Of a stretch of 20,000 nt of DNA, positions 236 through 20,000 are shown piece by piece. The stretch is from an uncultured virus (IMG/VR IMGVR_UViG_3300024272_000072) (lineage: Duplodnaviria; Heunggongvirae; Uroviricota; Caudoviricetes), in IMG/VR virus record IMGVR_UViG_3300024272_000072; one strand, 5' to 3'. Position 1 is the stretch's first letter. Each line of letters starts with the position of its first letter. The notes beneath the pieces were generated by a model. It worked only from the letters and a program-made list of their open reading frames with translations, did not search any database and had not been told where the DNA came from. The position numbers and the translations under genes were made by a program.

Positions 236-1900
236 ATGGCGAATGCGTGATGTATAAATGCAATCTGATATGATTGATGTTATATCAGAACATTGCAGAA
301 TCTTGATAGTTCTGATATTTGAACTGGTGTTGAATATACAGCACCAAACCCACTATGAGACAGAAATTTCGACTATATCAAATACACAGATAAATGTTGA
401 AATACTTGTTGCTTGACGTGAGAAAATGAAATCAACATAATCACAACAAATTGAGTTCTGAAAGATTTGAATCTGACAAGCAATCAAGACAAAATCATAA
501 TCACACGAACTGATTTATTTTGAAGCAACCGAGCAAAAACAGTCGTGAGATATTCAACATCGTGATACCCTTCAAGCAAAACAGATTGAACGCTTGTTGT
601 TGAAGAAACAACGAAAAATCAATATTCTTCAACTTGATACAATCTAACTGTTTCTGATAGTTGAACATATTATTTTTCAGCGTTCGCACTTGATTCAGAT
701 TGAAATGTAATTTGAGCAGCACAAAGCAACATTGCTGTATCTTTGTCAAAAGTATTGACTTTCACATTGAATCAAACACAATCAGTACCTTGAAGTATGA
801 TTACAGCGATTTCTGATGACGCAATCAATATGACACAGCAAGAAGTGATTGATTTCATTTGAGCATACCCAGTCTTACTTGACAATTCTTGAAACGAATA
901 CAAAAAGCTAAACCCTTTGAATTTCCAACAATTTGAAGATTGAACAGACGCAAGTTCATATACAGCTTCAACATCATACGATGTGATGATAAAATTTCCA
1001 AGAAGATGATACAAAATCAGCACAACGAACAATATCACAACATTCACATTGACTGATAAACAGAATGACCCAGAATATTGCTACGCACCATTTCAAAGAC
1101 TTTCAAGCTGAACATTATGAAACAGCAATGCAGTATATACAAATGCGTCAGCTTTCTATCTTTGAGCATATAAATGATACGCAAATTCAAATATTTTGAG
1201 AAGTCGATACAACAAAACGCCAACAGCTTCACAAACAATTTGAACATTCTCTTGATACGCAAGAAATCATTGAAATCTGCGATGAATCACAGAATTTATG
1301 CAAGAATTCTATCTTGAATTGTGTTTTATGGCGATATACAAAACAACAGACGCACAAAGTTCAATTTGACAATGATATGTATGATGAAGTTCAGCACCAA
1401 CATCGTGAACAATGACATACAATAAATGAATGACATATTGAACAAGTTCAACGACACAATGTATGAAATTCTTATGAATAGAAAATCGATATTGATGAAT
1501 TTGGGAGTGGGTGAACTGACGATGACAGACTTCTGCGTGAGTTCATATTTCAATACCTACAACAACGTGAGACAACAGAACTTCGACATATAGTTATACG
1601 CCTACTTGATACACAACAGTTTGAAGCATATCGCCAACATCTTGAAGTTATATCACGAAAGTATTATGACACACGTATTGATGATTCACGCCAACAACAA
1701 CTTGATGAAGTGAAACGACATACTTCACAGATTACTCTCGGCGGGCTTCGGGTTCTCGTGTGGCGGTATTCGGTGGTGCGTGGGGTGACGGTGCGAGATG
1801 TGGTGCTTTCTGTTGGTATTTGATTGGTGCTTCGTCGAATTCTTACTCTACTTTCGGTGCTCGCTTGATGTTCTTGCCGAATTGAGATTTATCTGTATAA
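236..1900 (+). CDS. DGR target protein, 554 aa: FN3-like domain plus C-terminal C-type-lectin-fold (Mtd-like) domain carrying the VR; likely receptor-binding/tail protein
   Basis: Open from ATG 236 to TAA 1898-1900 with TGA=Gly. FN3-like segment ITWTD..NWAKTVVRYSTSGYPSSKTDG..GTYYFSAFA. CLec-type motifs KFLGIENWYGGIWEWVNG, GFTPTTTGGSETTYFTDY, GGAWGDGARCGAFCW and FGARLMF. The 3' end matches the TR. Confidence 0.9.
1730..1873 (+). repeat. DGR variable repeat (VR), 144 bp
   Basis: Ungapped alignment to 2127-2270 gives 32 mismatches, 31 of them opposite a TR adenine. The one non-A mismatch is near the 3' end (IMH/IMH*-like position). Confidence 0.97.
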
Positions 1901-1911
1901 TCAAAAACAAA

Positions 1912-2061
1912 ATGGAAATCAAAATCACAATTGAAACAATACCAAAAGAAAAAATATATGAAATGACAGAAGATTGAATGAAAGAATCTGAAAACGAAAA
2001 AGTCGAAATGACAATCAAAGAATGAGATGATTGAGAAATCATCATCGAAAAAGATGAATAA
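1912..2061 (+). CDS. Small acidic hypothetical protein (49 aa) between VR and TR
   Basis: MEIKITIETIPKEKIYEMTEDGMKESENEKVEMTIKEGDDGEIIIEKDE*, with the A-rich leader typical of other genes here. Confidence 0.65.
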
Positions 2062-2126
2062 AAATATGGGTATTAGATACTGATATTAGAAATTCCACGT
2101 TTGTGCCAAAATCTAAAAGTGAAAAA

Positions 2127-2270
2127 AATTACACTCAGCAGAATTCAAGTTCTCGTGTAGCGAAATTCAGTGGTAAATGGAATAACAGTGCGAAATGTGG
2201 TGCTTTCTATTGGAATTTGAATAATACTTCGTCGAATTCTAACTCTAATATCGGTGCTCACTCAATGTTC
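2127..2270 (+). repeat. DGR template repeat (TR), 144 bp
   Basis: Adenine-rich copy of the VR (AAT/AAC/AAA/AGT codons at variable positions), lying directly upstream of the RT gene. Confidence 0.97.
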
Positions 2271-2430
2271 AAAAAATTCTTGATATGGAATATGATGTTT
2301 CACCGACATCATATTTCGAAATTAAAGCTCATATCTGATACCCTGGCTCTTGCCAAAACATAGAAACGTTTTATTTGGAGTCGTGCAAGTAAGAAATGAA
2401 AACTCGACCGTAAAGAACATCAACAAAAAA
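2271..2430 (+). ncRNA. DGR RNA 3' spacer (structured region between TR and RT)
   Basis: Perfect 10-bp stem AATATGATGT (2289-2298) / ACATCATATT (2306-2315). CCCTGGCTCTTGCCAAAAC at 2341-2359 resembles motifs I recall downstream of other DGR TRs. Confidence 0.5.
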
Positions 2431-3534
2431 ATGAAAACTTATGACAATTTATGGAATAAAATTATTGATAAAAACAACATATTGAATGCACACTACAACG
2501 CAAAAAAAGACAAATCGCATTATCAAGAAGTCAAGATGGTCGAATCAAATCTTGACTTTTTTATAAATGAAATACACGAAATGCTGAAAAACAAAACATA
2601 TATCATTGAAGACATTGACTATTCAACGTCTGTGATAAATGACAGCTGAAAAGAAAGAGAATTGCGAAAATTGAACTACTACCCACACAGAATCATACAA
2701 CGAGCAATTATGCTACAATTAGAGCCAATTTTTATGGAAGTATTATGCAATCACGTGTGTGCAAGTCTGAAAAAAAGATGAATTCATCACGCATTCAAAT
2801 TGACGCAAAAATACTTGCAAGATGAATGACACACAACATATTGTCTGAAAATCGATGTGAGAAAATTCTACCCAAGCATAGACCACGAAATATTGAAGCA
2901 ATTATTGAGAAGAAAAATCAAAGACAAAGATGTGCTTGAAATTCTTGATATGATTATTGACAGCTACCCTTGAACAAAATGAGTGCCAATTTGAAGCTAT
3001 CTTTCACAGTATCTTGCGAATTATTATCTTGCATATTTCGACCACCGAATGAAAGAAGAAGCGAAATGCAAATACACAGTCAGATATATGGACGACATCA
3101 TCGTTCTGAATGAAAGCAAAACACGACTTCACGAAACATTAGACAAAATCAGAGAAGAACTTTCAGATTTGAAACTTGAAATCAAATGAAACTATCAGAT
3201 TTTTCCAGTCGATAAAAGATGAATTGATTTTGTTTGATATAGATTTTTTAGAAATTTCACATTGTTGAGAAACTGAACAAAAAAGAAAATGAAGAAAAGA
3301 TTGAAAGAAATCAAAGATGAAAAAGCTGACAAACACAAGCTTTTGAATTACAATGAACGGTGCAGTATAAACAGCTACGTTTGACGAATGTTGAGTTGTA
3401 ATCATTACAGATTATTTATGAAATACATTTTGCCATTGATTCCAAGTCTTGACAGATATTATTTTTTTGTTTTATCACATCGCAACGAGAAAAAATTGAA
3501 AAAATATCACGAAAAATTGATGAGTAAGATATAA
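2431..3534 (+). CDS. DGR reverse transcriptase, 367 aa
   Basis: With TGA=Gly and CGA=Trp: GKEREL..YYPHRIIQWAI, YCLKIDVRKFYPSIDH, GVPIGSYLSQYLAN, FDHWMKE, RYMDDI, GIDFVGY, SYVGW. ATG 2431, TAA 3532-3534. Confidence 0.96.
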
Positions 3535-4522: not shown

Positions 4523-4660
4523 ATGCGATTGAAATTGATTCTTATGCTTGCTTGCTGAATTCTATTCATATTCAGTATGATAAAATTCGACATTGCATTG
4601 TTCAAATTCTTGCTTGTTTTGAGCTTGCTTGCAATTATTTTTATTTGTGTTTTTATGTAA
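4523..4660 (+). CDS. Small two-TM membrane protein (45 aa)
   Basis: MWLKLILMLACGILFIFSMIKFDIALFKFLLVLSLLAIIFICVFM*, tightly packed before the holin. Confidence 0.55.
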
Positions 4661-4664
4661 ACAA

Positions 4665-5138
4665 ATGAACGAAGCTGAATGATTCGCTATATGAATATTC
4701 TGATGACTTTCTGTCGCTGGAATACTTGAATATTTTTCAATCAGTGGCGAATGACTGCTGATTATGACAGCAATGCTTGTTCTTGATTTGATTTTCTGAT
4801 TATGTTCTGCAAAAGCCAGATGAGAAACAATTCAGAGCAAAAAACTTCAAGAATGACTTATCAAAAAGATGACACGCCGATTGTTGCCGTTCATCGTTGC
4901 ACTTTGATTGAAGCGAACTTGAATGCCGTGAATTGAAGCACTAATCACAGCAATCGTTTGAATGATTGTGTTTTCAGAACTTTATTCAATAATCTGACAC
5001 ATATATTCAATCAATTACAAAGAAGAATTGCCAGAAGTTGACGCATTCAAGATGTTGTTGAATAGTGTTGTGAAGATTCTGAAAAATCTGATAAACAAAA
5101 AGAACGATGAAATCGAGCCAAAAGATGAAGAAAAATAG
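4665..5138 (+). CDS. Phage holin (Phage_holin_4-like), 157 aa
   Basis: Hydrophobic segments with LVLDLIFGLCSAKARGETIQSKKLQEGLIKK and FSELYSIIGH motifs, plus a charged C-terminal tail. Confidence 0.8.
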
Positions 5139-7013: not shown

Positions 7014-7497
7014 ATCTCAAATCTTTACAAGCCCAGATTTCTCTTTTATATGCAGAACATCGATATATATTCACATCATTGACATAAATATAAACTCTTG
7101 CTTGGTCTGATAAATCTTCATCAGCCAATTCGTTCGATAAATTTACAGATTGCCCCCTTGCAATAAAATCAACTGTGTCTTTGATTCATTCAATGTTTGG
7201 AGTTTCTGAATAATAAATATTCAAATCTGCTTCTTTACATTCATCTTTACAGACTACTTTCACAAATTCAGATTGTTCAGCTGAAAATAATTCCGTGATT
7301 CTATCAATTCTTGCTTGAACAACATTTCTCATTTTTTGAGTTTTTGTTGAAACATAAGTTGAAGATGTTGAATTTGACGTTGTTGAAGTGTTTCAATCTT
7401 TCGCAAGACTGTTCAATATTCAACAAACAAAGATGAAAACAATCACTCGAAATCGCCATTTCTTATGCAATGGCTTTTTTGCCTTTTCTTCTGCCAT
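7012..7497 (-). CDS. Membrane-anchored surface protein (161 aa); possible superinfection-exclusion protein
   Basis: MAEEKAKKPLHKKWWFWVIVFIFVCGILNSLAKDGNTSTTSNSTSST...: the familiar KKPxxKKWWFW anchor plus an S/T linker. Only reverse-strand gene found, next to the recombinase. Confidence 0.8.
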
Positions 7498-7526
7498 TTT
7501 GAACGACTTATGATATAAATGAAATC

Positions 7527-7554
7527 AATATACAGAATCACTTTCGAATGTCAA
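7527..7554 (-). promoter_or_regulatory. Sigma70-like promoter for the reverse-strand gene
   Basis: Minus strand TTGACA-N16-TATATT, about 30 nt upstream of ATG 7497. Confidence 0.6.
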
Positions 7555-7558
7555 TAGA

Positions 7559-7592
7559 TTGACATTTGACAAAAAAAATATATAAATATACT
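7559..7592 (+). promoter_or_regulatory. Probable promoter for the recombinase gene
   Basis: Tandem TTGACA at 7559 and 7566, followed by TATAAA (7581) and TATACT (7587); divergent from the reverse-strand promoter. Confidence 0.5.
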
Positions 7593-7649
7593 CGTTGACA
7601 TAAGCTTATGAAACACACAAATCTTTTTATATGCTTATGTTTTTTATCA

Positions 7650-8591
7650 ATGAATGAATTTATAGAAATATTACAACAACGACGTGATTATGAAGAAAAC
7701 GTCAGAAATCACAATTCATATATCAATCGCTTCTATATTATAAGAAACTTCTGAAAATATCTTGTTTCTATCAAGCCACAATTCAAGCTTGAAGAAATCG
7801 AACTATATGAAATCATTCAATATCTTGTATATTACAGAACGCACAAAAATTGCAGATGAACAATACCGAGCAGATGTGCTGAATACAATGTGATTTGTGC
7901 AATCAGAAATTTTTTCAGATTCTGCAATATTCTTTGAATGCGTTTGAAATTTAATCGAGAACAGATTCCGATGTTCAAACAAGAGCCAGTGAAACGTGAG
8001 CCAATGAGCGAAGAAGATTATCAACTAATGCACACAGCAATCAGATTGTTTTCAAAATCAGAAGAAATCAGATTGCGTGATGAACTGATGATTGAAATAC
8101 CACGAGAAACTTGATTGAGAAAATCTGAAATTGTCAGATGTAAGTTCAAAGATTTTCACAATGAAAACAGACAATTCAAAGTTCTTGTGAAGTGAAATAG
8201 ATATGAATCAGTATTTTTTTCTGAAAAATTACAGAAAAAAGTTTTTGAATATGAAAACATATTGAATCAGAAATACAAACATCTTGATATTGAAAAGCTT
8301 TTCATTTGTTTATGACAGAAAGAAAAGTGAAAAGAAATCAGTTCTGATTTATTATGAAGACATTTTCTCTTGATTGTGAGAAGAATGAAGAAAGAATGAA
8401 TGATTCCGAAGAACAAAACGCTTTGTCTTCATCAAGAAAGACATTCATTCGCAATGCGTTGTGTTTATTCTTGATTATCACAACAAGCAACAACGAGATT
8501 GATGAGACATTCAGACCCAAAAATCACGCTTCATTATTATCATATGAACGATTCACGATTACTGGATCAATATGATTCGATTCGTGTATAA
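7650..8591 (+). CDS. int: Tyrosine recombinase / integrase (XerC/D-like), 313 aa
   Basis: Catalytic residues in order: ETGLRKSE (R), LVKG (K), HQERHSFA (HxxR), LMRHSDPKITLHYY (H, Y). Confidence 0.9.
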
Positions 8592-8743
8592 AATTCCAAC
8601 AGCGAAAATATCATTAAAAATAAAAAAGTCAAAACTTTGTCATTTTTTTTCGTTTCAAGGCTTCATACCTGCTATTTGAAAATTCAATTAAGAATTGATT
8701 TTTTTCGATTTAATTTTTTTTATAAAAAAAAGTCGTCAAAAAT

Positions 8744-8771
8744 TTGCATTTTTGGAAAATTTTTATATAAT
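8744..8771 (+). promoter_or_regulatory. Sigma70-like early promoter
   Basis: TTGCAT-N16-TATAAT upstream of the structured leader and the early operon. Confidence 0.6.
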
Positions 8772-8774
8772 AGA

Positions 8775-9045
8775 TTTCAGTTAAGTTTGAAAATCGAATG
8801 AAAATGTCTTTGATTGCAAAAAATTGATGACTTTTTTCAAGAGATTATTCGTATCGTCAAGGTTCTACAATTCCGAAGTAGCTTATGTCAACCGATACGA
8901 CAGCAACAAACTTGACTGTCGTTCAATATCACATCATATTTAATTCCGACAAACAAAGATGTTGAAATGAACGACACAACATCTTTGTTCGTCTGAATTG
9001 ATTTGTGTGTAAGATTCGAACGAACAAAGGTTCGAGTCTTTTTAT
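8775..9045 (+). ncRNA. Putative structured regulatory RNA / attenuator leader with antisense segments
   Basis: Stems 8849-8856/8893-8900, 8898-8903/8916-8921 and 8942-8964/8977-8999. Alternative pairings 8917-8925/8968-8976 and 8983-8992/9020-9029. Complementary to 16375-16416 and to 7594-7623. Confidence 0.6.
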
Positions 9046-9047
9046 TT
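9011..9047 (+). terminator. Intrinsic terminator/attenuator hairpin before the first early gene
   Basis: AAGATTCGAAC-GAACAAAG-GTTCGAGTCTT followed by TTTATTT. Confidence 0.65.
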
Positions 9048-9061
9048 AATCACAAAATCAG

Positions 9062-9226
9062 ATGAGAATCAGATGAGTTGTTGCAATAGTTGTGAGCATT
9101 ATTGTGTGAATGTTCACGCCAGCTGGACTATATGTATATACGATTCCGTTTCTCATTTGATGTATGTGATGAAAAAAAGTTCGAAAATTTTATTTCAATT
9201 TTTTCTTCAAGCAAGATGACGAATAA
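9062..9226 (+). CDS. Small membrane protein (54 aa), first early gene
   Basis: MRIRGVVAIVVSIIVGMFTPAGLYVYTIPFLIGCMGGKKVWKFYFNFFFKQDDE*; overlaps the next start. Confidence 0.55.
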
Positions 9227-9947
9227 AAACTATTTCAAATGTTTTCGCTTGTTTCTTGAAACTTGAAAGAAGCTTGATGATTCGATGAAGTGAAAATATT
9301 ATGAATCATTGCTTGAATATTGACTTGATTGAATCAAGCCCACTGATCCAATCATCGACGCGTTGTTGACTTCTGCGATGTATTCGATTGACAAATCAGA
9401 TGAAGAACTGAAAAGAAAATCTGAATCAATGCAATGAAATCAAAACGCAGTCAAGAGCTTTGAAAAGCTATCAAAACAGAAAAAAACAGACAAAAACAAA
9501 AACAAACAGAACGAAACAGAGAAAAACATATGAAGAAAAGAAGTATATGAAGAATATGAAGATAATACAAACAATAATAAAATCATCATAAATGATGATT
9601 CAGAATCAAAAGATTCTGTTCAGTATTGAAATGAAGAAGTGAATAAATGTCTGACGAGAATCAAATCATATAATTGATGACTATTAGATTGAACAGTCAA
9701 AAACAATCGCAGATATGCAAAACTTCTGATTGATAAACTGAACAAACTTGAATCGATTCAAGCTTGAAAATACACACGAGAAGAAACGCTTGACATCATT
9801 CTTCAAGTGATTTCGAAAAACAAATACCACGTTTCGAAAATTACATCAGCAGAATCGATTTATCGCAATCTTGCAGTTCTTATGCAGACGTGCAAGAATG
9901 ACATTTGAAAAGCACAATCGAATCAAATCATTTTACCTACAATTTAA
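9216..9947 (+). CDS. Phage replication initiator / replisome organiser (DUF6291-like N-terminus), 243 aa
   Basis: N-terminal ..KKLDDSMKGKYYESLLEYGLDGIKP..MQGNQNA, then a low-complexity K/N/Q linker containing DNA repeats, then a C-terminal domain. This is lambda O-like architecture at the start of the early operon. Confidence 0.7.
9471..9618 (+). repeat. Iteron-like repeats and palindromes; putative replication origin
   Basis: Six phased 10-bp units with consensus nnnAAACAGA (9471-9530), then palindromes AATCATCAT-AA-ATGATGATT and CAGAATC-AAAA-GATTCTG (9581-9618). Confidence 0.6.
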
Positions 9948-9955
9948 TCAAGAGA

Positions 9956-10276
9956 ATGAATCAAATCAAAGTTTATAAAGAAATGACTTATGTCGAATGC
10001 TATGACTGAACGATATTTGAAACACCTGCAAAATTTGAGACAGTTGTTCAATTGCGAAAAAATGCTGACTTGTATGTTCAAATATGAGACACATCAATCG
10101 CAAAATGAAACATCAAAACAATCACGAAAAAGCAATTGTCAGATGTTGAACAAATATTGTATTCACAAGACAGATTCGTTCGCGAACAATTACAGAAAGA
10201 GATTGATGATAGAATCAAAAATTGATTTCGTGTGAATGTTGAGATTGTACAAAATTTACTTCAAAAATATTTGTAA
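9956..10276 (+). CDS. Hypothetical protein (106 aa)
   Basis: Open with TGA=Gly; MNQIKVYKEMTYVECYDGTIFETP... Confidence 0.7.
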
Positions 10277-10278
10277 AA

Positions 10279-10479
10279 ATGCCGATTGAATGAATTACCG
10301 AACGAGAAACACAGCCATTGTTCAAAATCTTTCTTCGCAGAATATGATTCAAGAACTTTGACGAATACATTGAACTGTTTTGAGACAATATCGAAAAGAG
10401 AAAAGAAACAGTTCGCCGATTTCAAAAAACATACCCACTTTTTACCATTAAAAAACAAGAGAAATGAAAAACATCTTAA
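10279..10479 (+). CDS. Hypothetical protein (66 aa)
   Basis: Open with TGA=Gly; tightly packed between neighbours. Confidence 0.55.
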
Positions 10480-11069
10480 AAAAACTCGCAGAAGCAAAAA
10501 AGAATATTGCTTCACAGAAAATCACAAAAGAGTGAAAGAACACTTATTCAAACTATTCATATTTCACGCCAGAACAAGTCAGTTCAATTGTTCAGAAAGC
10601 GTGTGATGAATTCAAACTGTTCACAAAATTTGACTTGATCCGTGATGAACAGTGAATCGAATGACAGTTGACGATATACGATATTGAATCAGATGAAAAT
10701 ATCACGTTCATTTGAGCAACTGCAATTCCAGAAATCAAAGCAACGAACGTTGCACAACAAATCTGATGATGTATGACATACACCGAAAGATATTTGAAAA
10801 TGACAGCGTTCTGAATCGCAGACAATTCACTTGATTTCGATACGACTGAAAACACAGAAAAGACAGCGAAAGCACAATCAAAAGCTGAAACTAAAAAAGA
10901 AACAAAGCGATTCAACAAAGAACAACTCGAAAACTTGAAAACAAATACTGAATACTTGAAGAAATTCGAGAAATCAGACGATTTGCTTCAAGACATTCAG
11001 AAACTTTGATATTCAGTCAGCAAAGAAATGAAGATGAAGATTGCTGATGTTCGAGCAAGTGTTGAATAG
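10464..11069 (+). CDS. erf: ERF-family single-strand annealing protein (201 aa)
   Basis: KEGKNTYSNYSYF near the N-terminus and AQQIGGCMTYTERYLKMTAFGIAD, matching the ERF Q..G...TY.rRY....fgi motif. Confidence 0.8.
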
Positions 11070-11101
11070 TTTTCTATTTATTCCTTAATCAAACCAACAA
11101 A

Positions 11102-11473
11102 ATGCAACAAGAGAAAAAAAGAATCAGAAGTGTTTGAAAATATCACTTCGAAAATGTCAGAATCTGTTGTGAGACAGATGTGATATATACGAGATGTCGT
11201 ATTTGTAAAGAATACAAACCAAGCAACTTGAAATATTTCAGAAAAGATTCTGATCCAAACGCACAAAGATTGATTCAACCATTATGTCTTGAATGTGCAA
11301 GACAAATGGAAAAAGCGAAAAGATATAAAAAAGTTGAAGCAGAAAAACCAATCACAAACGTTGAACAGAAAGAATTGTTTGATTGAAAAGTCTTCACGAA
11401 AAAAGAATCAGAATCAAACGAAACACTCGAATCAAAAATCAACAAAATCTTTAATTTCTTATGACTGAAATAA
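11102..11473 (+). CDS. Zinc-ribbon hypothetical protein (123 aa)
   Basis: CRICKEYK...F...LQPLCLEC-like CxxC pair. Confidence 0.7.
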
Positions 11474-11475
11474 AA

Positions 11476-11868
11476 ATGAACATACAAGAAATAATCGACA
11501 AATATGAATCATTCAAAAAGAAATGATTGAAACTAAACGAACAAGATATGTTCGACTGGCTTGAACTTCAAGATGTGATTGAAGACAAAGTGATTGAAAT
11601 CAAATCAAAATATCTTGAAGACAAACTTGTATTCGACCGTGATTATTGATTGCGTCTGATTGAGTTGAAAGACAAGAAAGACGCAGATTGAAAAAAGATT
11701 TTCACAGATACAACAGCAAAAGCATTTTGCGACAATGAGTTCTTTGAACGTGAACTTGCATTGATTACAGCAAAAGCAACGTATGAGAATCTGATGAACA
11801 AAACAAACAATGTTGTTGAATACATCAATGTGATAAAATTATCAATGAAGAAAGACTTTACAATTTAA
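11476..11868 (+). CDS. Helical hypothetical protein (130 aa)
   Basis: Open with TGA=Gly; MNIQEIIDKYESFKKKGLKLNEQDMFDWLEL... Confidence 0.7.
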
Positions 11869-11878
11869 TCAAAACAAA

Positions 11879-12088
11879 ATGACAGAAACAAAAGACAAAA
11901 TAATCAATCAATGATTATCGATTGAAAAAGACAAATTGTTCGCAATTTGCAAATGAGACCGAAAGCTTGCAAGAGTTGAAATGATGATGACGTTGAAGAA
12001 CGTGTTGAAAGTTTCAATTCTCGAAGCACACGAGAAAACAAAGCAACTGAAACCCGAACGAGAATCTTTTTATTCCTTAATCAATTAG
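11879..12088 (+). CDS. Hypothetical protein (69 aa)
   Basis: Open with TGA=Gly; A-rich leader. Confidence 0.6.
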
Positions 12089-12089
12089 A

Positions 12090-12896
12090 ATGAGACAAAA
12101 GATAGTTTATATATTGAGCATTTTATTCGCAATACTCGTGATTCTATGAATCGTATTGTTGAAATGAAATGTTGTTGCGAAATCAGAACCGATTCAAGAA
12201 ATATTGAATCAGATACAAACAAATGAATCTGAACTGCAACAGCTTGAAATCAGACAGAATGAATTGAATCAATGAACTGCAATGTTGAAAGAAGAATTGT
12301 TCGTGAAATATTGATTGCAACTTTCAGAAAAAGAAGAAACAGAACTTTTGACTGATGAAAATTGAAATTGTATTTGATGAATCTGATGTTCAAAAGATGA
12401 ACGAACACCGTGAAAATTGAATGAAAGTTGAAACGCACAAGAAATGCCAATTGTTGAATGAAATGATTCACACGATAAATTCAAGAATCTTGCAATTGCT
12501 TATTGATTGGACGCTTCACAGATTCGAGCAGTCGAGAATCACTATTGAATCACAGAATGAGTGATTCTGTGCATTACAGTCGCAGAAACATCTTGATGAA
12601 ACAGATGAGCTTGATGAAAAAATATTTGAAGTGTATGAAGCAATGACAGATGAGAAAGACCAACTTATGCACTTATGGAATCTTGACTTGAAGATATTTG
12701 AAAAACATTGACGAACAGATATTTGTGAAAAAAACAAACACTTTGATGTCTTTCAAATGCGTGAAGTTGTAAAGAAACAAACGACAATTGAAAAAGATAT
12801 GCAACGAGTGAATCACACCGAGAAAAAAATATGACAGCGTGTCTTTCAACAATTTATTGAAGCATTGATCCAGCGACATTCAGCATAAGAAGATAA
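12090..12896 (+). CDS. Membrane-anchored lysozyme-like hydrolase (GH73/glucosaminidase-like), 268 aa
   Basis: N-terminal TM helix, coiled coil, then HYGI..VILCITVAETSGG..KNIGSVGSND..RYATSESHWEKN (catalytic Glu and YAT..W motif). Confidence 0.65.
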
Positions 12897-12921
12897 AATT
12901 TATTTTCTTAATGCAAACAAA

Positions 12922-13479
12922 ATGAGAAAATCACAAATCAAAGAATTGTATGATAAATTTCTTTGACTGAAATGTTCAATGTCAGTTTACTATCAGAGAA
13001 TCAAACATTGAATTGATCCATTCACAGCAATGAAACCAGTTGAAAGAAAATATGAAGTCAGAAGCAAGAAATATTGAGCAGAGCTTGAACGATACAACAA
13101 ACAACCACAACCGAAACCACCGAAGCAGAAATTCTATTGAAGACTTCAAAAATGATATTCAAAAGAAGAAGCAATCAAGATTCAACTGAAATGTAAAGAC
13201 AGAAAAAAGAGATGACAAAAAGATTTGTATGTGAAAGCATACACAGTCAAAGAAAGAAGATACAAACAAGATGACTATGAAATCAGAATCACGTATCATT
13301 CAGATGAAGCAAAAGTTTTCAAAGATGAATATGAAAGAATGATACGTGAAACTGAACAAAAACGAAATGAGACTGATGACATTATTGAAGCAAAAGAGCT
13401 GAAAAAGAAACTCGACAAACTGATTGAAGAATATGCACTTTTTATTTCTTATAATAGCAAACAAAATGAATCATTGTAG
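12922..13479 (+). CDS. Hypothetical DNA-binding protein with two short repeats (185 aa)
   Basis: YYQRIKHGIDPFTAM and FYGRLQKGYSKEEAI repeats resemble the PVL ORF50-type motif. Extends track ORF 13225..13479 upstream through TGA. Confidence 0.65.
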
Positions 13480-13903
13480 AATTTGTTGAAAAACAATACC
13501 GAACATATTCAATTGATGACTTGCATTGCGATGTTCAGAATGTCGTGCGATTCAAGATGAAAAACTTTCAGAAATGATGTTTGAACACGACAGTCTTGAA
13601 TCAGAGAATGAATATTTGAGAAGTCGTTTCTTTGATACAGAAAGAGAATATGCTGAAAGAAATTACAAATATTCAAAACTGAAAAAAAGATATGATTTAT
13701 TGCGACAAAGACATTCTGTCGTTATCAGAGAAAACGCAAGATTGACGAAAAAGAATGAAGAAATGAACAGAGTTTTTATGCAGAAATGCGAAGAAATGAG
13801 AAAAGAAATATTTGATTTGAATAAAAAAGTTGAAGAACAATATCACACGATCCAACAATATGAGCAATGATTCGCAATTTGAAGCTATCATTGAGAAGAA
13901 TAA
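13466..13903 (+). CDS. Zinc-ribbon plus coiled-coil hypothetical protein (145 aa)
   Basis: HCRICGK...WCSECR followed by long heptads; extends track ORF 13526..13870. Confidence 0.7.
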
Positions 13904-13928
13904 TTTTAGACCATAATCAAAAGAAATA

Positions 13929-14291
13929 ATGAAAAAGAGAACATTCAGAAATAAATTTCAAGTATTCTCACTTGAAAGATATGATCCAAACACGTGAGAC
14001 GAAGTTGTTTATGTTTCAGAAATGTTTGAAAACATTATTGAAAAAGCAAAAAAAATTTGATATGAAAAATCAATTGATGTGTATTTATACGAACGAACGG
14101 CTGACTGAATTTGATATGTTCACGAGTGAAAAGACCTAAAGTTCAAATATTGAATATCAAAAATCAACTATACAGACAGAGAAAGAGTATGAATCAAATC
14201 AGCAATCATCGCAACTTTCTGAAAAGTAGAAGACGCAAAACTTTTTGAAGATATTTCAAAATATTGTGATATTTGTCTGCAACAAGAATAA
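13929..14291 (+). CDS. Hypothetical protein (120 aa)
   Basis: Open with TGA=Gly. Confidence 0.65.
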
Positions 14292-14316
14292 TTTTATATC
14301 AATTATTATTTATCAA

Positions 14317-14562
14317 ATGGAAAAGAAACAAGAAAAAAGAGCTGAAAAGCCACAAATCAAAAAAATAATCACAGAATCTGAAATTTATTATTGAACAAAT
14401 CGAAAAATCATAATTTCAAAAAGAATTCTTTCAAAATCATATATTGTGAAAGTGAGACACAACACACGAAAAGAATCAACATTGATTGATAAAGATTTCA
14501 ATACTTATGAAGAAGCCGAAGAATATGCAATACAATATCTTGAAGAAACGATGAAATTTTAG
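14317..14562 (+). CDS. Hypothetical protein (81 aa)
   Basis: Open with TGA=Gly; ends DFNTYEEAEEYAIQYLEETMKF*. Confidence 0.65.
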
Positions 14563-14580
14563 TTCAAAATATTTCGAAAA

Positions 14581-14955
14581 ATGAGACAGAAAATCAATCT
14601 TTTTGAAGATCCAGAATATAGAAGAAAAAAAAGAATCAGAACAGTATGAGATTTTGATTCTGCAAAAAGAAAAATGGTGAAATTATTTTGTCAGATTTAT
14701 TTCTGAAATGAAAACTGTCGAAGTCGAATGGAATACATCGGCTGATATATGAAACAGACAATATTTGTAAAATCAAAAGAAAATAAAGATTATATATTCA
14801 ATCTGAATGATATATTCACAGCGTTGTATTGCGATATTTCATCAGAGATGTTGTTTGAACGATACAAATGCAATGAATATTTGATGAATAATTGACACCA
14901 AGAACAGTCTTTGAAATCGTTTTATTTGTCGTATTTTGAATCAGATGAATGATAA
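14581..14955 (+). CDS. Hypothetical protein (124 aa)
   Basis: Open with TGA=Gly. Confidence 0.65.
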
Positions 14956-14956
14956 A

Positions 14957-15298
14957 ATGAAGAAATTGATGAATCTATTGAACGAATATTTGATTGAAAT
15001 TGAACGATGATTCACAGTCAATTATCGAAACGAAGAATTCAAATGCTTTGATGATTTAGAAGAAACTTGACGAAATATAAATCAAGAATTATTGATTCTG
15101 AAATCATTCAAATTCATCGAACGATTATTTGAACGCAAAAAAATTGATGAAAACAAGTTGAGATGAGCAAACCCATATTTCAGACTTGAATGATGATGAA
15201 TCTTCAAATCAGCAAAAGAAAAAAGATACTATACGGCTTTGATGTTGCTTGCAATCACAGATGAGCCGATGAAACTTTTATCATCTATTTTGAAATAA
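14957..15298 (+). CDS. Hypothetical protein (113 aa), paralogue of 15782-16159
   Basis: Shared motifs FKFIEWLFERKKID and LMLLAITDEPMKLLSSILK*. Confidence 0.7.
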
Positions 15299-15299
15299 T

Positions 15300-15599
15300 A
15301 TGGAAAAAAATATATGACTACGAATATTCTGAATATGAATATCTATTCTTATGATTCCTGTGATATGTGCAATCATAGAGAACAAAAAAATTCATTTATG
15401 AGATACAATTTATAGTGATTGGTGATGTCCGTGATGAATAGTTGTTTGATTGTCTGATGAAGTAATAATCACATCAGATTTATCGTGAAATATTCAATGT
15501 GAATATAATTTGTCAGCGATTGATTATGACTTGAAGAAGAAAAATCTGAATCATAGACAGACAGCAACTTGATATGAGTATATTATAGACAGATTATAA
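15300..15599 (+). CDS. Hypothetical protein with N-terminal TM segment (99 aa)
   Basis: MEKNIGLWIFGIGISILMIPVICAII... Confidence 0.6.
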
Positions 15600-15629
15600 T
15601 CAAACTTTTATATTCAATTTTGAAATAAA

Positions 15630-15779
15630 ATGAAAATGACAATCGCAGAATTTTTCATCATATTCATCATCGCTTTGATTGTTTGAATATGAATCGCTTT
15701 GATTCCTGAATTGATAAACTGTGCAACAATGCAAGTTTCAGAAATGCCGTGATATTGCTTTTATTTATTGCAGAAATAA
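15630..15779 (+). CDS. Small membrane protein (49 aa)
   Basis: MKMTIAEFFIIFIIALIVGIGIALIPELINC... Confidence 0.55.
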
Positions 15780-15781
15780 AA

Positions 15782-16159
15782 ATGACTGAATTTGAAGCAC
15801 CAACAGAACAAGAAGCAAAGCTTTTGAAATGTTTTGAAAATTTTCTTATGGAAAGAAATGAAAAAGAAGATTTCACAATCATAGTCAAATGATTGCCTTG
15901 ATGTTATCTTTTCTGAATTCACGAATCAGTTATTATTTCAAGAACATTCTGATTCATCAAACGATTGATCCAGACAGACAAAATTGATTATGACAAGACG
16001 TTTGAATGAAACGCAATGGCTTGAACTTGATGAAATTATGCAATCAGCGTTTCAGCATTCACAAGCAAAACACGAGAAGAAATTCAAATCGACAAAATCT
16101 TGATGATTTTGAGTGTGAATGAACGACCTTTGCACTTTTTACAATCTATTTTGAAATAA
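15782..16159 (+). CDS. Hypothetical protein (125 aa), paralogue of 14957-15298
   Basis: FGFIKWLIQTDKID and LMILSVNEWPLHFLQSILK*. Confidence 0.7.
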
Positions 16160-16160
16160 A

Positions 16161-16286
16161 ATGTCAGTATTATTTGCAATATTTTCAATCATCTATTGAT
16201 TGATATTCATATTCACTTTTCAAGATTCGAAATTGATTATTTCACTTTTGTTTTCGATTCTTGCAACGATTCATTCGTTTATATAG
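16161..16286 (+). CDS. Small two-TM membrane protein (41 aa)
   Basis: MSVLFAIFSIIYGLIFIFTFQDSKLIISLLFSILATIHSFI*. Confidence 0.5.
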
Positions 16287-16309
16287 AAACACAAAGATAT
16301 TGAATCAAG

Positions 16310-16333
16310 AAAGTCGGAAATTCCGACTTTTTT
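16310..16333 (+). terminator. Intrinsic terminator closing the early operon
   Basis: AAAGTCGGA-AAT-TCCGACTTT followed by a T tract. Confidence 0.85.
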
Positions 16334-16364
16334 CAAAAAGATTTCGTTTTGAATCAAAATAATA

Positions 16365-16444
16365 TAATATCATATTGACATAAGATATTCGGAAATTGTA
16401 GAGCGTTGACGATACGTGCGTATTTATCTTCGCTTTCTTTTTTT
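16365..16444 (+). promoter_or_regulatory. Late-operon -10 box and 5' leader containing the inverted copy of 8850-8891
   Basis: TATAAT at 16365-16370 with no good -35; 42-nt element at 16375-16416; a short hairpin and T tract before ATG 16445. Confidence 0.55.
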
Positions 16445-16891
16445 ATGTGAAAAAAGACGAAACAACAAATCAGCAAAAAAAAGCTGAATGATGAAAATGT
16501 TGAGCTTGCGAAATTGATTGCAAAAGTCAGAGACAAATACACTTGTCAGCATTGTTGAAAAACAGCAAGACAGACATCAATTCACGCAAGCCACATCATC
16601 AATGAAGCAAGAGACCACAGACTTGCAAGCGATCCATACAACATCAAAGCTTTGTGCTATAATTGCCACATCAATCGACGACACAAAAACCCAATCGAAG
16701 CAAGTCAACGATTCAATGAAAAACGACCTTGAAGATATGATGAACTTCAAGCGAAACACATTGAATATATGAATAAATGAAGCATTGACATCAATCGAAT
16801 GCTTGAAAGAAATCAAGAATTGAGAAAGCAATGTGAAGAAATGAAAATTGATATTTCAAAATTCAAATTCTGACAAAAATTTATTTCATAA
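16445..16891 (+). CDS. NinG/HNH-like nuclease (148 aa)
   Basis: KVRDKYTCQHCG..IHASHI..NIKALCYNCHINWWHKNPIEASQWF. Confidence 0.75.
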
Positions 16892-16906: not shown

Positions 16907-18160
16907 ATGAAAATTCAAGAAATCAAAATTGATTCGTTGATTCCTTATGAATACAACAACAAGAAACACGATGAGACACAAGTCAATCGTCTTGCGAATT
17001 CAATCAAAGAGTTCTGATTCATACAGCCACTTGTGATTGATAAAAACAACATCGTGATAATCTGACATTGAAGACTTGAATGAGCAAAAAAATTGTGATT
17101 GAAAACTGTTCCTTGCGTGAAAGCCGAAACACTGACAGAAGAACAAGTGAAAAAATTGAGAATTCTCGATAATAAGTTGAACGAATCGCCACGAGATATT
17201 GAGAATCTGCAATATGATTTGTCAACGATAAAAAATTTCAACATTTGAGACATAGAAATCACGATTGATGATTTATTTTGAGATATGTTCCCAGAAGAAG
17301 AACCAGAAACAGAAGTCAAAGATGTTGAATCAAAAATCTGAAAAACTGCGAAAGTTGTGAAGAAATGAGATATTTTTGAACTATGAAATCACAGATTGAT
17401 GTGTTGAGATTCAACAAACGAAAATGATGTTGCACAATTGATGTGAGATGAACGTGCAGACATATCATTCACTTCGCCACCATACAACGTCTGAAAGAAT
17501 GCGAAATTGAATGCGTGAATGAGATGAGATGATTCAAAATATGAAAACGATTCTGACGATAAAGATTCAGAAGAATACAGACAATTTCTTGAAACATTCA
17601 CAAAACTTTCACTTGAACATTCTGAATATTCATTTGTGAACATTCAATCACTTGCGTGAAACAAAATATCATTGATTGATTATCTGTATGATATGAAAGA
17701 CCAATACGCAGACACAATCATTCGAGATAAATGACGAAGCGCACCAGCAATGTGAGAAAACGTTCTGAATTCAAGTTTCGAATACATTCACGTATTCAGC
17801 CACAAATGAAATCGTGCAATCTGAACAATACCATTCAGATGAACATTGCAGAATATTTTTCACGTCAGCTGACAGATGAAAAACGAATATTCAAAAATTC
17901 ACAGTGCAACATTCTCAATCGAGTTTGCAGAACACTTCATCAAAAATTTTGCAAAAGACAGCGTTCTTGATTTGTTCTGATGAACTTGAACATCAATGAT
18001 TGTTGCAGAACAACTTTGAAAGAAATCGTTTCTTATGGAATTAGATCCTTTGTATTGTGAAGTTATCATCAAAAGATTTCACTGATTGAGACCAGAGCAA
18101 AAAATCAAATGCACAAACAGAGAAATCGAGATTGATGAAATTTTATCTGATGACGAATAA
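16907..18160 (+). CDS. ParB-like N-terminal domain fused to an N4/N6 DNA methyltransferase (417 aa)
   Basis: LIPYEYNNKKH..SIKEFGFIQPLVID..IGHGRL (ParB-N); HRLMCGDST; catalytic FTSPPYN; SAM-binding VLDLFGGTGTS..MELDPLYCEVIIKRF. Confidence 0.88.
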
Positions 18161-18355: not shown

Positions 18356-18850
18356 ATGAAGAAGATTCACGATTATTCAGCTTTGAAACTCGAATTCTTC
18401 AAATCTGATTTTGATGAAGTGAAAGCGTTTATCACTGATAAATGACTGACATATAATTCAGAACGAACGAAAAGAACAAAATGACGAACAAAAGAGAAAC
18501 AAGAACGAAAAAAGAACATCGTTGAAAAAGCATTGATGAAACAAGCCGAGAAACAAGCGAATGAATTATCTGTGCCAATTGAAGACTTGATGAAATGAAA
18601 GAAAGCAGTTCTTCAATTGTTGCTTGTTCAAGTCTCAAAGTTCGTGAAAGCGAATCAAGATAAAAAAGACATCGACATCGATGTGTGAGACGCAGAAAAG
18701 ATTCTGAAAATGTTCAAGACTGAACTGTGAGAACCTGCAACAATTTGAGCGAATTACAATATGAACGCAAGCAAGGTTGAATGACTGACAGATGAAGAAT
18801 CAGAAGCGCTTGATGTTCTGTTCAGCACGAAAATCAAAAAAGTCAAATAA
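18356..18850 (+). CDS. Putative terminase small subunit (164 aa)
   Basis: Lies directly upstream of TerL; size and helical content fit; contains TKGWTKEKQEW and KTELGEPATI. Assignment is mainly positional. Confidence 0.6.
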
Positions 18851-18937
18851 TCAGATATTGATTGAGATTAGTGAGAATCGCTTCCGACGGTGGAATGAAA
18901 AACACAGTATATTGACATATTTATTATTTATCAATCA

Positions 18938-20000
18938 ATGGACAAACAAAAAGCAATAGAATTATTGAAAAACAGCAGTTTGTTGAGAAACAAATATTTT
19001 GAATTCAATTTCTTTGATTTTTGCAAGTTCTATTTTATGGAATATTACACATTCGAAACGCCAGAATGTCTTGTTGAAATTTATGACGCACTTGAAGAAT
19101 GAAAGAATGTGTTCATTGAGTGATTCAGATGAAGTGCAAAAACAACGATTGCACAGATGTTCGTTTCACGATGTATCGCATACAAGAAAAAAAGAAACAT
19201 TATGCGATACGCACAAACAATCGAGAATGCAGAAGAAAATCTGACTTATATTGCGAACAGTTTCATTTGAGACACCGACTGATGAGAAAGATTCATTCGT
19301 GATTATTGACATTTGTATTACCCAGAATTTATGAATCGCTGATGACAGAAGAAAATCAAACGTATTGATAAATTCATCACAGAAAATGACTGCTATGTCA
19401 GAGCGATGTCTTTGTGAACGTCGCCGAGATGAAAGAACTATACAGCACCAGATTGAAAATTTAGACCAGACTTGCTTGTGTTCGATGATGTTGATACAAT
19501 GACGAGCACAGATTCAAAAAAGAAAATTGACAAAAACTTTGAATTCTTATTGAATGAAGTTCTTTGATGAACAACGAACGCAACGCAGATGATATTTCTA
19601 TGAAATACAATCTATGAAGACTGACTTGTGCCGAGATTCAGAGAACACATCGCAAAAGACAAAAATCGAAGAACAATCAGAATTCCGATATATGATGAAA
19701 AAAATCAAATCGTTCGAAACAGATTCGTTGAAACAGACAAAGAAGCAGAAAAACTGAATGAATGAATCACAGATTCAAATAAAAAGTTCACGTCTCTTGA
19801 ATCTGAAAGACGCAGACTGTGAAGCATTTCATTCAATCAGAATTATTTGCTTGTTCCTTATGTGATTTGACAACACATCATCACACGTGATATGATTCAA
19901 TATGATGAAAATTGCAGAAACTATCAATTCGATTTCATTCAGATTTGAGTTGATCCAGCAGTGAGTGAAAAAGAGTGAAGCGATGAATATGCAATCAATA
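18938..20000 (+). CDS. terL: Terminase large subunit (partial, runs off the window)
   Basis: Walker A GFRGSAKTT, SLGTSPRG, Walker B RPDLLVFDDVD, FLGNTIYEDG, FNQNYLLVP, and nuclease motif IGVDPAVSEKEGSDEYAI. Confidence 0.92.

Follow-up and report, generated by a model that had tools for sequence, protein, structure and literature searches.

Why should a phage carry, close to its integrase gene, a segment antisense to the very start of its late-operon leader? The question is raised by a 20,000-nt stretch of an uncultured virus of the Caudoviricetes (IMG/VR record IMGVR_UViG_3300024272_000072; this whole stretch is called the window here), in which an early copy, E (positions 8850 to 8891), and a late copy, L (16375 to 16416), form an inverted repeat. 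A first-pass annotation, made from the sequence alone, had pointed out that the two copies could pair as RNA and had proposed an RNA switch in trans between early and late transcription. The reading that we are inclined to prefer, on balance, is that E belongs to an antisense RNA acting in trans on termination in the late leader, probably by antitermination. That the two RNAs pair functionally, in whichever direction the effect may run, appears likely.

The strength of the case lies first in the pair itself, which is present with exactly the sequence and coordinates that had been annotated and ranks first among the 178 inverted pairs returned by a repeat search of the window. The two 42-nt copies are 83% complementary without gaps, and 38 of 43 columns match once two 1-nt gaps are admitted. 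Written as a degenerate pattern, each half of the repeat matches at these two places only, and in none of 200 dinucleotide shuffles did either half find at least two matches. A scan of the window for + strand partners of the 42 nt at the late 5' end gave -54 at E, with a runner-up of -24.7. E lies 260 nt from the integrase gene and L lies 7.5 kb from E. Both regions look non-coding from their sequence, as had been proposed: the open frames overlapping them have no Pfam or PHROG match, and relatives are gapped there by 1 to 7 columns. The annotated TATAAT boxes are likewise found 5' of both copies on the + strand, at 8766 to 8771 and 16363 to 16368. Relatives were sought with the integrase and HNH endonuclease proteins and with motif patterns, and this yielded six variants holding both regions, which fall into four clades: the window, G008 with L085, G009, and G010 with L088 (G008 and L085 are close to each other, as are G010 and L088). 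Two partial contigs, G011 and G012, contain late copies only and so contribute no pair.

What E is part of can be read from its surroundings. A sigma-70-like promoter, P_E, lies 3' of the integrase stop at 8743 to 8771 (TTTGCA-17-TATAAT, 10 of 12 consensus positions, with 8766 to 8771 as the -10 box), and relatives carry TTGACA-17/18-TATAAT, TATACT, or TATATT at the same position. About 7 nt past the -10 box, the invariant CAGTTAAGTTTGA marks the start of a unit that ends in an intrinsic terminator, T_E, with an 11-bp stem and a T-run (9011 to 9046). Between promoter and terminator, the + strand is best read as a candidate for a discrete, structured small RNA of about 269 nt (8778 to 9046). 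This refines the earlier label of "early leader," which holds insofar as the early copy is indeed 3' of a promoter and falls short in that the copy is a hairpin inside a discrete small RNA unit. A 27-codon frame at 8799 to 8882 is not retained in G010 or L088. The unit has the features expected of a base-pairing small RNA, namely, its own promoter, an intrinsic terminator, a conserved fold, and overlapping open reading frames (ORFs) without a family match.

The fold of this RNA gives the copy E a defined place. The 269-nt RNA folds with a minimum free energy (MFE) of -80 kcal/mol (z = -5.46), and none of 200 shuffles folded as well. An alignment of the six variants gives a consensus fold of 75 pairs in which 94.4% of cells are paired, a figure that drops to 35 to 43% when the partners are slid by 1 to 3 columns. 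Nine pairs are changed on both sides, a level of support reached by none of 500 shuffles; as the covariation comes from six related sequences, it is taken as support for the modeled fold and not as proof. The elements are a 12-bp closing helix that starts from the extreme 5' end, hairpins P1 and P2, a long hairpin (8925 to 9016) that is the window's second inverted repeat and forms helices 4 and 5, and the terminator as helix 6. One-sided changes in the terminator stem run from U-A to U-G and from A-U to G-U, which leaves standard pairs when the + strand is read as RNA. Hairpin P2 spans about 8849 to 8899, with an outer stem CGTATCG/CGATACG, an inner stem CTAC/GTAG, and a 9-nt apical loop, AATTCCGAA, and E makes up most of it. 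It is this apical loop that varies between phages.

Several further observations concern the small RNA and its immediate neighborhood. Within the long hairpin and terminator, the block GTCTGAATTGAT..GTGTGTAAGATTCG at 8990 to 9025 is nearly invariant although the integrases are only 56 to 68% identical, and this exceeds what pairing in the fold needs. A tRNA-like GGTTCGAGTC at 9029 to 9038 is more readily explained as the terminator's 3' arm. Pieces of DNA near-identical to the window also occur in a 1.2-Mb genome, G001, whose contigs (C33 and C58) stop at window position 8977 and restart at 8997, within the long hairpin; to one side of the break the DNA is a variant of 94% identity, and to the other the identity is 100%. 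The break probably reflects a strain mixture. The idea that 8977 to 8997 is an attP/attB site was dropped as unconvincing, as elsewhere G001 gives matches of only 14 to 16 nt, with no tRNA there. A BLAST search of the small RNA against 401 genomes of the order of G001 found it in G001 only. Just 3' of the terminator, 9056 to 9110 holds a tandem ATCAGATGAG repeat and an inverted repeat, CAATA-N11-TATTG (9084 to 9104; CACAAT...ATTGTG in relatives); this block is kept in L020 to L024 and may be an operator or an early-gene start region. Four sequencing runs guessed to be RNA, none of the listed runs being recorded as such, are kept as Logan contigs, which carry no information on start, end, strand, or level. 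Their contigs lie on 8778 to 8955 (X4, from a library labeled complementary DNA), 8859 to 9039 (X3), and 16367 to 16854 (X2); the runs had been picked by this very stretch, and the contigs were not used as evidence.

The other partner is the leader of the late operon. Upstream, a terminator-like hairpin followed by T6 (16310 to 16334, + strand) closes the preceding operon; it was read from the sequence and was not flagged by a simple terminator scan, and relatives have equivalent hairpins of other sequence 5' of their late copies. The presumed late promoter, P_L, is represented by its -10 box (TATAAT, 16363 to 16368), with the repeat beginning 7 nt after it, and a -10-like box stands 4 to 10 nt 5' of the element in all eight class-A late leaders (the sister phages of class B are taken up below). 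L would be the first 42 nt of a late leader that starts at about 16375 on the + strand, and it ends 28 nt before the ATG at 16445. In all lineages, L resembles E from one and the same TTGA onward as far as the loop of the leader hairpin, and the complementarity starts within a few nucleotides of the predicted start of the late transcript. This leader hairpin, T_L (16398 to 16444, + strand), had been annotated as a potential hairpin with a T tract and is present in the MFE fold: AGAGCG (16400 to 16405) pairs with CGCTTT (16431 to 16436) around an inner GATACG/CGTATT, followed by a U-run at 16438 to 16444. The outer stem, AGAGCG(U)/(A)CGCUUU, and the U-run are kept in 8 of 8 related leaders, the individual outer-stem pairs in 5 to 8 of them, and in two of the pairs both partners have changed; the HNH-type start codon comes immediately afterward.

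Conservation of the pair was among the checks that the first-pass annotation had asked for, and the result is favorable, as the pair is kept in all six variants and its two copies covary. The copies always lie on opposite strands, even where integrase identity is as low as 56%, and they are spaced by 7.5 to 8.7 kb where the contig permits and by 24.8 kb in G009, on a 66-kb contig. The reading of G009 as an integrated prophage was rejected because early genes follow its small RNA as they do in the window. (Positions 20000 to 23000 of this same contig, L096, form a stretch of about 3 kb with only 13 to 18% G+C.) Every record with both copies shows the same arrangement in one direction: integrase, small RNA, early genes, late leader. 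Certain differences between the copies are fixed, with E reading CATAAGC...GTAGAAC in the late orientation and L reading CATAAG...GTAGAGCG. Across the phages, the sequence varies in the middle and in the second half, where the two copies of any one phage nevertheless match, as seen in TTCGGAA / TTGACGATACG for the window, ACAAATTG / TTGAAGATACG for G008, TAATTGG / ATTGATACG for G009, and TATCTTTTC / TTCGATAC for G010. As for the reach of the sample, a metagenome scan returned nine loci, adding L085, L088, and the partial L093, and a scan of genome contigs for further lineages gave no match. A viral scan with a two-block pattern also gave nine loci, of which five (L103 to L107) were unrelated coding DNA and were dropped.

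This constancy bears on two other explanations of the repeat. As inverted repeats, one of them only 260 nt from a tyrosine integrase gene, the copies could be sites at which that recombinase inverts the 7.5-kb early region, an alternative that the first-pass annotation had also offered. A single arrangement is seen in all records with both copies, and an opposite-strand joint of the two sites is absent from the contigs of the four runs (contigs being all that these provide). The features of E (AAGC...GTAGAAC) and those of L are never exchanged, unlike what crossing-over within the repeat would produce, and the copies lack the build of recombination sites, in which symmetric binding arms flank a short core of identical sequence; their centers carry mismatches and length differences of 1 to 3 nt. 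An invertible region is thus not borne out and seems scarcely credible. The second explanation, a functionless duplication remnant or a module-boundary sequence held similar by gene conversion, would suit mosaic phages such as these; a 35,960-bp complete virus record with near-identical DNA (G002, the same record as G003) shares 39% of the window's sampled 31-mers, and its E and L copies are 8.7 kb apart rather than 7.5 kb. It is nonetheless very improbable, since the pair recurs in all four clades, the variable parts matching and each copy keeping its own fixed differences, and since its copies coincide exactly with a structured RNA hairpin and with a predicted transcript start.

Predicted duplex energies link the covariation to RNA. 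Duplexes between the small RNA hairpin and the late leader of the same phage range from -44.9 to -53.5 kcal/mol, against -25.9 to -42.3 kcal/mol for partners from different lineages and a mean of about -12.5 kcal/mol for shuffled leaders; in the 6 x 6 matrix, the cognate duplex is the best in every row and every column. The sense in which both RNAs are read from the + strand beats the pairing of the opposite transcripts in six of six pairs, by 2.6 to 10.2 kcal/mol, so that differences between the copies tend to be those that G.U pairing tolerates in + strand RNAs. An example is GAGC in L opposite GAAC in E, which is shared by descent and therefore counts only once. Cofolds of the full-length RNAs gain 24 to 31 kcal/mol over the separate folds, and in all six phages the leader hairpin is replaced by an intermolecular helix. 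In the predicted dimers, the closing helix of the small RNA switches to an alternative hairpin. By these models, the pairing itself is well supported.

From these elements, a concise mechanism can be proposed. The small RNA would be transcribed rightward from its strong promoter just 3' of the integrase gene and would stop at its own terminator, and its hairpin P2 (8849 to 8899) would be antisense to the first 42 nt of the late leader RNA starting at about 16375. The phage-specific P2 loop could then contact the unstructured 5' end of the nascent leader, and the duplex would spread into the 5' arm of the terminator-like hairpin and block it, allowing RNA polymerase to continue into the operon encoding the HNH endonuclease, a methyltransferase, TerS, and TerL. 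The small RNA would thereby be an RNA counterpart of a late antiterminator, taking on the job of Q, and late transcription would be tied to the build-up of early transcript. Since the duplex would take up the 5' arm of T_L, pairing is predicted to relieve termination and not to repress in the manner of P4 or c4. The trans-acting RNA switch of the first-pass annotation, which had named those systems as its analogues, is in this respect supported by the conserved, covarying pair and altered in the sign of its predicted effect. Because the match is kept in every related phage examined, contact between the two RNAs probably governs the timing of late-gene switch-on. That both RNAs are produced, each from its predicted start, that T_L works as a terminator, that the small RNA is quick enough to intervene, and that the effect has the sign given here are all inferences.

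The same pairing could be turned around. The late promoter might constitutively yield a short, terminated leader RNA of about 65 nt that acts on the early leader or early mRNAs, or the duplex might feed a double-strand RNase that inactivates the late mRNA, with the small RNA as the immunity factor of the lysogen, in the way of P4 CI or P1 c4. The small RNA gene does stand beside the integrase, the usual place of immunity functions, and no protein repressor was recognized; the first-pass annotation had likewise seen no CI-like repressor or Q-like antiterminator, and a comparison of 63 candidate early-region ORFs with PHROGs and of 30 ORFs with Pfam returned no family of repressors, Q-like antiterminators, or late activators, an absence that also counts in favor of antitermination by RNA. 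The predicted switch of the closing helix in the dimers would also suit such a role. Short terminated transcripts from late promoters elsewhere can act as regulators, as is reported for StxS from a lambda-type PR' (PMC7547250). On the other side, the class-A duplex removes the leader hairpin, which predicts more read-through and not less, and the folds show no link from P2 to the small RNA's own terminator. We regard a reversed or repressive role as rather unlikely.

A number of observations weigh against antitermination by the small RNA, and some of them would suit a protein. In a simple scan, the late copy is preceded by a -10 box only and not by a complete -35/-10 promoter of the sigma-70 type, and T_L was not flagged as a terminator; its stem has internal loops. 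Folded by itself, the leader is no more stable than its shuffles (z = -0.72), and a trans-acting RNA would have to catch a nascent leader of about 60 nt before the hairpin closes. The sample comprises four clades only, and related sequences inflate counts of this kind. Seven gap-free columns vary in both copies, with pairing kept in 6/6 variants at three of them, in 5/6 at two, in 4/6 at one, and in 1/6 at one, and column by column, the cognate pairing is not always the best; such a count is blurred by insertions and deletions, and for this reason the duplex-energy matrix is preferred. Moreover, no copy departs from the flanks CATAAG and GTAGA(A/G)C, a constancy that pairing alone does not need.

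Invariant flanks, which extend to class B, are what would be expected if E and L were DNA operators of a single phage-specific DNA-binding protein at the late promoter and in the early leader, their covariation tracking the specificity of the protein. Dispersed asymmetric operators are known from the C1 repressor of P1. A shared protein would also require identity between the copies, and since most early ORFs have no assigned function, a regulator could hide among them. Against this, no DNA-binding family was found in the Pfam (30 ORFs) and PHROG (63 ORFs) comparisons, and a contiguous match of 42 nt is long for an operator. The distance from CATAAG to GTAGA is 13 to 19 nt depending on the phage, and in three of five distinct pairs the E and L copies of one phage disagree by 1 to 3 nt, which a duplex tolerates and a rigid two-part protein site would not. 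The preference for the + strand RNAs in six of six pairs would be meaningless for double-stranded DNA. Furthermore, the match is bounded by the predicted 5' end of the RNA and by a hairpin loop, E lies within an RNA hairpin supported by covariation with its variable part in the loop, and every distal copy is antisense to L. Taken together, these points make operators an unlikely explanation, albeit one that deserves to be weighed seriously when the sister phages are considered.

These sister phages, class B, comprise eleven related HNH loci (L029 to L038 and L040; e.g., records G004 to G007). Their leader has the same core, GCATAAG, a variable stretch, and TTGTAGAACC, followed by a hairpin and a T-run, and each genome holds a single full copy together with several partial antisense copies. 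The first partner is a 19-nt arm in the spacer of the late promoter; two subtypes differ in this arm and correspondingly in the leader, and on the + strand it shows G-T mismatches. The second covers codons 3 to 10 of an early gene and matches at 23 of 24 nt, with a single mismatch that would be G.U between two + strand RNAs. The third, of 15 nt, lies in the long non-coding leader that follows the integrase and is headed by a strong promoter of the same kind; the duplex of this early leader with the late leader, at -31.1, is within the range of shuffles (mean, -23.6; minimum, -32.7). All of these partners run antisense to the leader, none of them reaching into its hairpin, so that sequestration of a terminator cannot be the universal mechanism. 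That antisense partners recur strengthens, at the level of sequence, the view that the late 5' end must have such a partner for some purpose. The position over codons 3 to 10 looks like a regulator target, as a reversed role would have it, and the several partial copies, including inverted arms around the late -10 box, would suit an operator. The class-B arrangement is not reducible to one model and keeps that of dispersed operators alive. In these relatives (G007, with loci L097 and L098, as well as L029 to L038 and L040), the leader hairpin CCTTTGA/TCAAAGG contains AAGGTG 9 nt before the ATG, and it may therefore hide a ribosome site rather than terminate.

How antitermination by the small RNA would relate to known systems can be considered next. 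A search of the whole window with cmscan against 4,227 Rfam families at E <= 1 gave six weak matches, all below gathering scores, with no C4 or other phage antisense family among them; a comparison with C4-type families had been suggested by the first-pass annotation. In phage P4, CI RNA (seqA/seqC) is derived from an early leader whose own sites it pairs with, causing the premature termination that underlies immunity. The window's RNA would be similar as a candidate master regulator of a temperate element that originates in an early leader and acts via termination, and it would differ in having its target in another operon and in a predicted duplex that destroys the terminator hairpin. In the plasmids pT181, pIP501, and pAMbeta1, and with Anti-Q of pCF10 and pAD1, an antisense RNA on the nascent leader decides whether an intrinsic terminator forms, and RnaG of Shigella is reportedly a further example of such countertranscript attenuation (PMC2879508). 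Here too, binding to a nascent leader would decide termination, and the plasmid cases show that the kinetics are feasible; however, the plasmid RNAs are encoded opposite or beside their targets and favor termination, whereas the present RNA is encoded 7.5 kb away with a geometry that favors read-through.

The layout also recalls the late operon of lambda, where PR', qut, and tR' precede the late genes and the Q protein modifies RNA polymerase, and the put RNA of HK022, which antiterminates alone, in cis, on the polymerase. The order of promoter, short leader, terminator, and late genes, opened by antitermination, would be the same with an RNA in the place of Q, but unlike both Q and put, a separate RNA would simply sequester one arm of the terminator. 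In IS10, which is not a phage, the cis-encoded RNA-OUT blocks translation of RNA-IN, and there, as proposed here, the loop of a regulator hairpin meets the extreme 5' end of the target RNA. For c4 of P1 and P7, encoded in the immI operon, differences in the pairing loops are reported to set phage-specific, heteroimmune specificity (PMC12197685). Like c4, the window's RNA would be a phage-encoded structured RNA whose loop pairs with a phage transcript, with a loop that is phage specific and fits its own target. The c4 RNA is 77 nt long and acts within its own operon, where it occludes the ribosome site of ant; the present RNA is about 270 nt long, and its target, 7.5 kb away, is the 5' end of the leader to the HNH-terminase operon, where the start codon is left uncovered and a terminator arm is overlapped. 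In its working, the proposed system would thus be closest to P1/P7 c4, P4 CI, and plasmid countertranscript attenuation, yet outside those families. A search of open-access text and of passages from a 2025 review of phage small RNAs yielded no description of a phage RNA that targets the leader terminator of a terminase operon in trans.

The identity of the phage is suggested by its genetic code. Read with table 11, the window has no long frame, and TGA is very frequent in every frame; relative to expectation, the dinucleotides GG (0.15) and TA (0.41) are depleted. With table 25, in which TGA encodes glycine, genes read out on the + strand. Glycine is encoded by 124 TGA codons against 10 GGN codons in the confident ORFs, and TGA occupies the glycines of the FGGTG motif of the methyltransferase and of the TerL Walker A motif. 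On these grounds, the sequence is that of a temperate phage of a code-25 host of the Gracilibacteria/Absconditabacteria type. Stop codons are very rare and most frames are open on both strands, so that open frames alone are not markers of genes.

The other genes of the window, all on the + strand, fit this assignment of a code-25 phage in being readable under table 25. The tyrosine integrase (7197 to 8591) matches Pfam Phage_integrase at 3.1e-16 under this code, probably has its true start later in the frame than 7197, and has relatives at 48 to 92% identity. A holin (4593 to 5138) and an ERF recombinase (10464 to 11069) were likewise recognized. In the late operon, the first gene encodes an HNH endonuclease (16445 to 16891; Pfam HNH, 4e-05; PHROG HNH, 2.5e-09) and is followed by a ParB-N/N6-N4 DNA methyltransferase (16907 to 18160), a presumed TerS (18356 to 18850), and a presumed TerL that begins at 18890 and runs past the window end at 20000. 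The last two have no strong family match, and their names were inferred from position and, for TerL, from the Walker A motif GFRGSAKT. Across the 30 ORFs compared with Pfam and the 63 candidate early-region ORFs compared with PHROGs, the families matched were integrase, reverse transcriptase, holin, ERF, HNH, methyltransferase, and one family of unknown function, with the few remaining matches weak and below threshold.

Two other features were seen in the window. A diversity-generating retroelement occupies 236 to 3534, where a tail-fiber-like gene (236 to 1900) carries the variable repeat (1731 to 1873) at its 3' end, followed by the template repeat (2128 to 2270) and a reverse transcriptase gene (2350 to 3534), all on the + strand; 30 of the 31 differences from template to variable repeat fall on template adenines, and a weak match to Rfam RT-17 at 2339 to 2405 is below threshold. 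Just 5' of the late promoter, a 38-nt gene-junction repeat occurs three times within 14807 to 16167 (at 15269, 15599, and 16130). In the same region, the small ORFs 14807 to 15298 and 15683 to 16159 have similar ends (...SSILK and ...QSILK) and look from their sequences like paralogues, with no function assigned.

To our knowledge, phages of those bacteria of the candidate phyla radiation in which TGA encodes glycine are known from metagenomes only. The idea of an RNA pair is checkable in vitro without culture of the host. If relief of an intrinsic terminator in trans is indeed what takes place, it would be a rare natural example of such logic, and the system could be a source of mutually orthogonal pairs of RNA keys and terminators, as the four clades discriminate by 5 to 25 kcal/mol. 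It could be speculated further, and only tentatively, that the switch from early to late genes runs on RNA alone, with an "RNA Q" of about 270 nt that occupies the terminator 5' arm in trans and whose loop is a private key for each phage, an RNA-based counterpart of heteroimmunity, and with class B using the same key and lock in cis and on early mRNAs. In a phage in which almost no early protein fits a known family, the RNA match provides a concrete handle on how late genes may be timed or locked.

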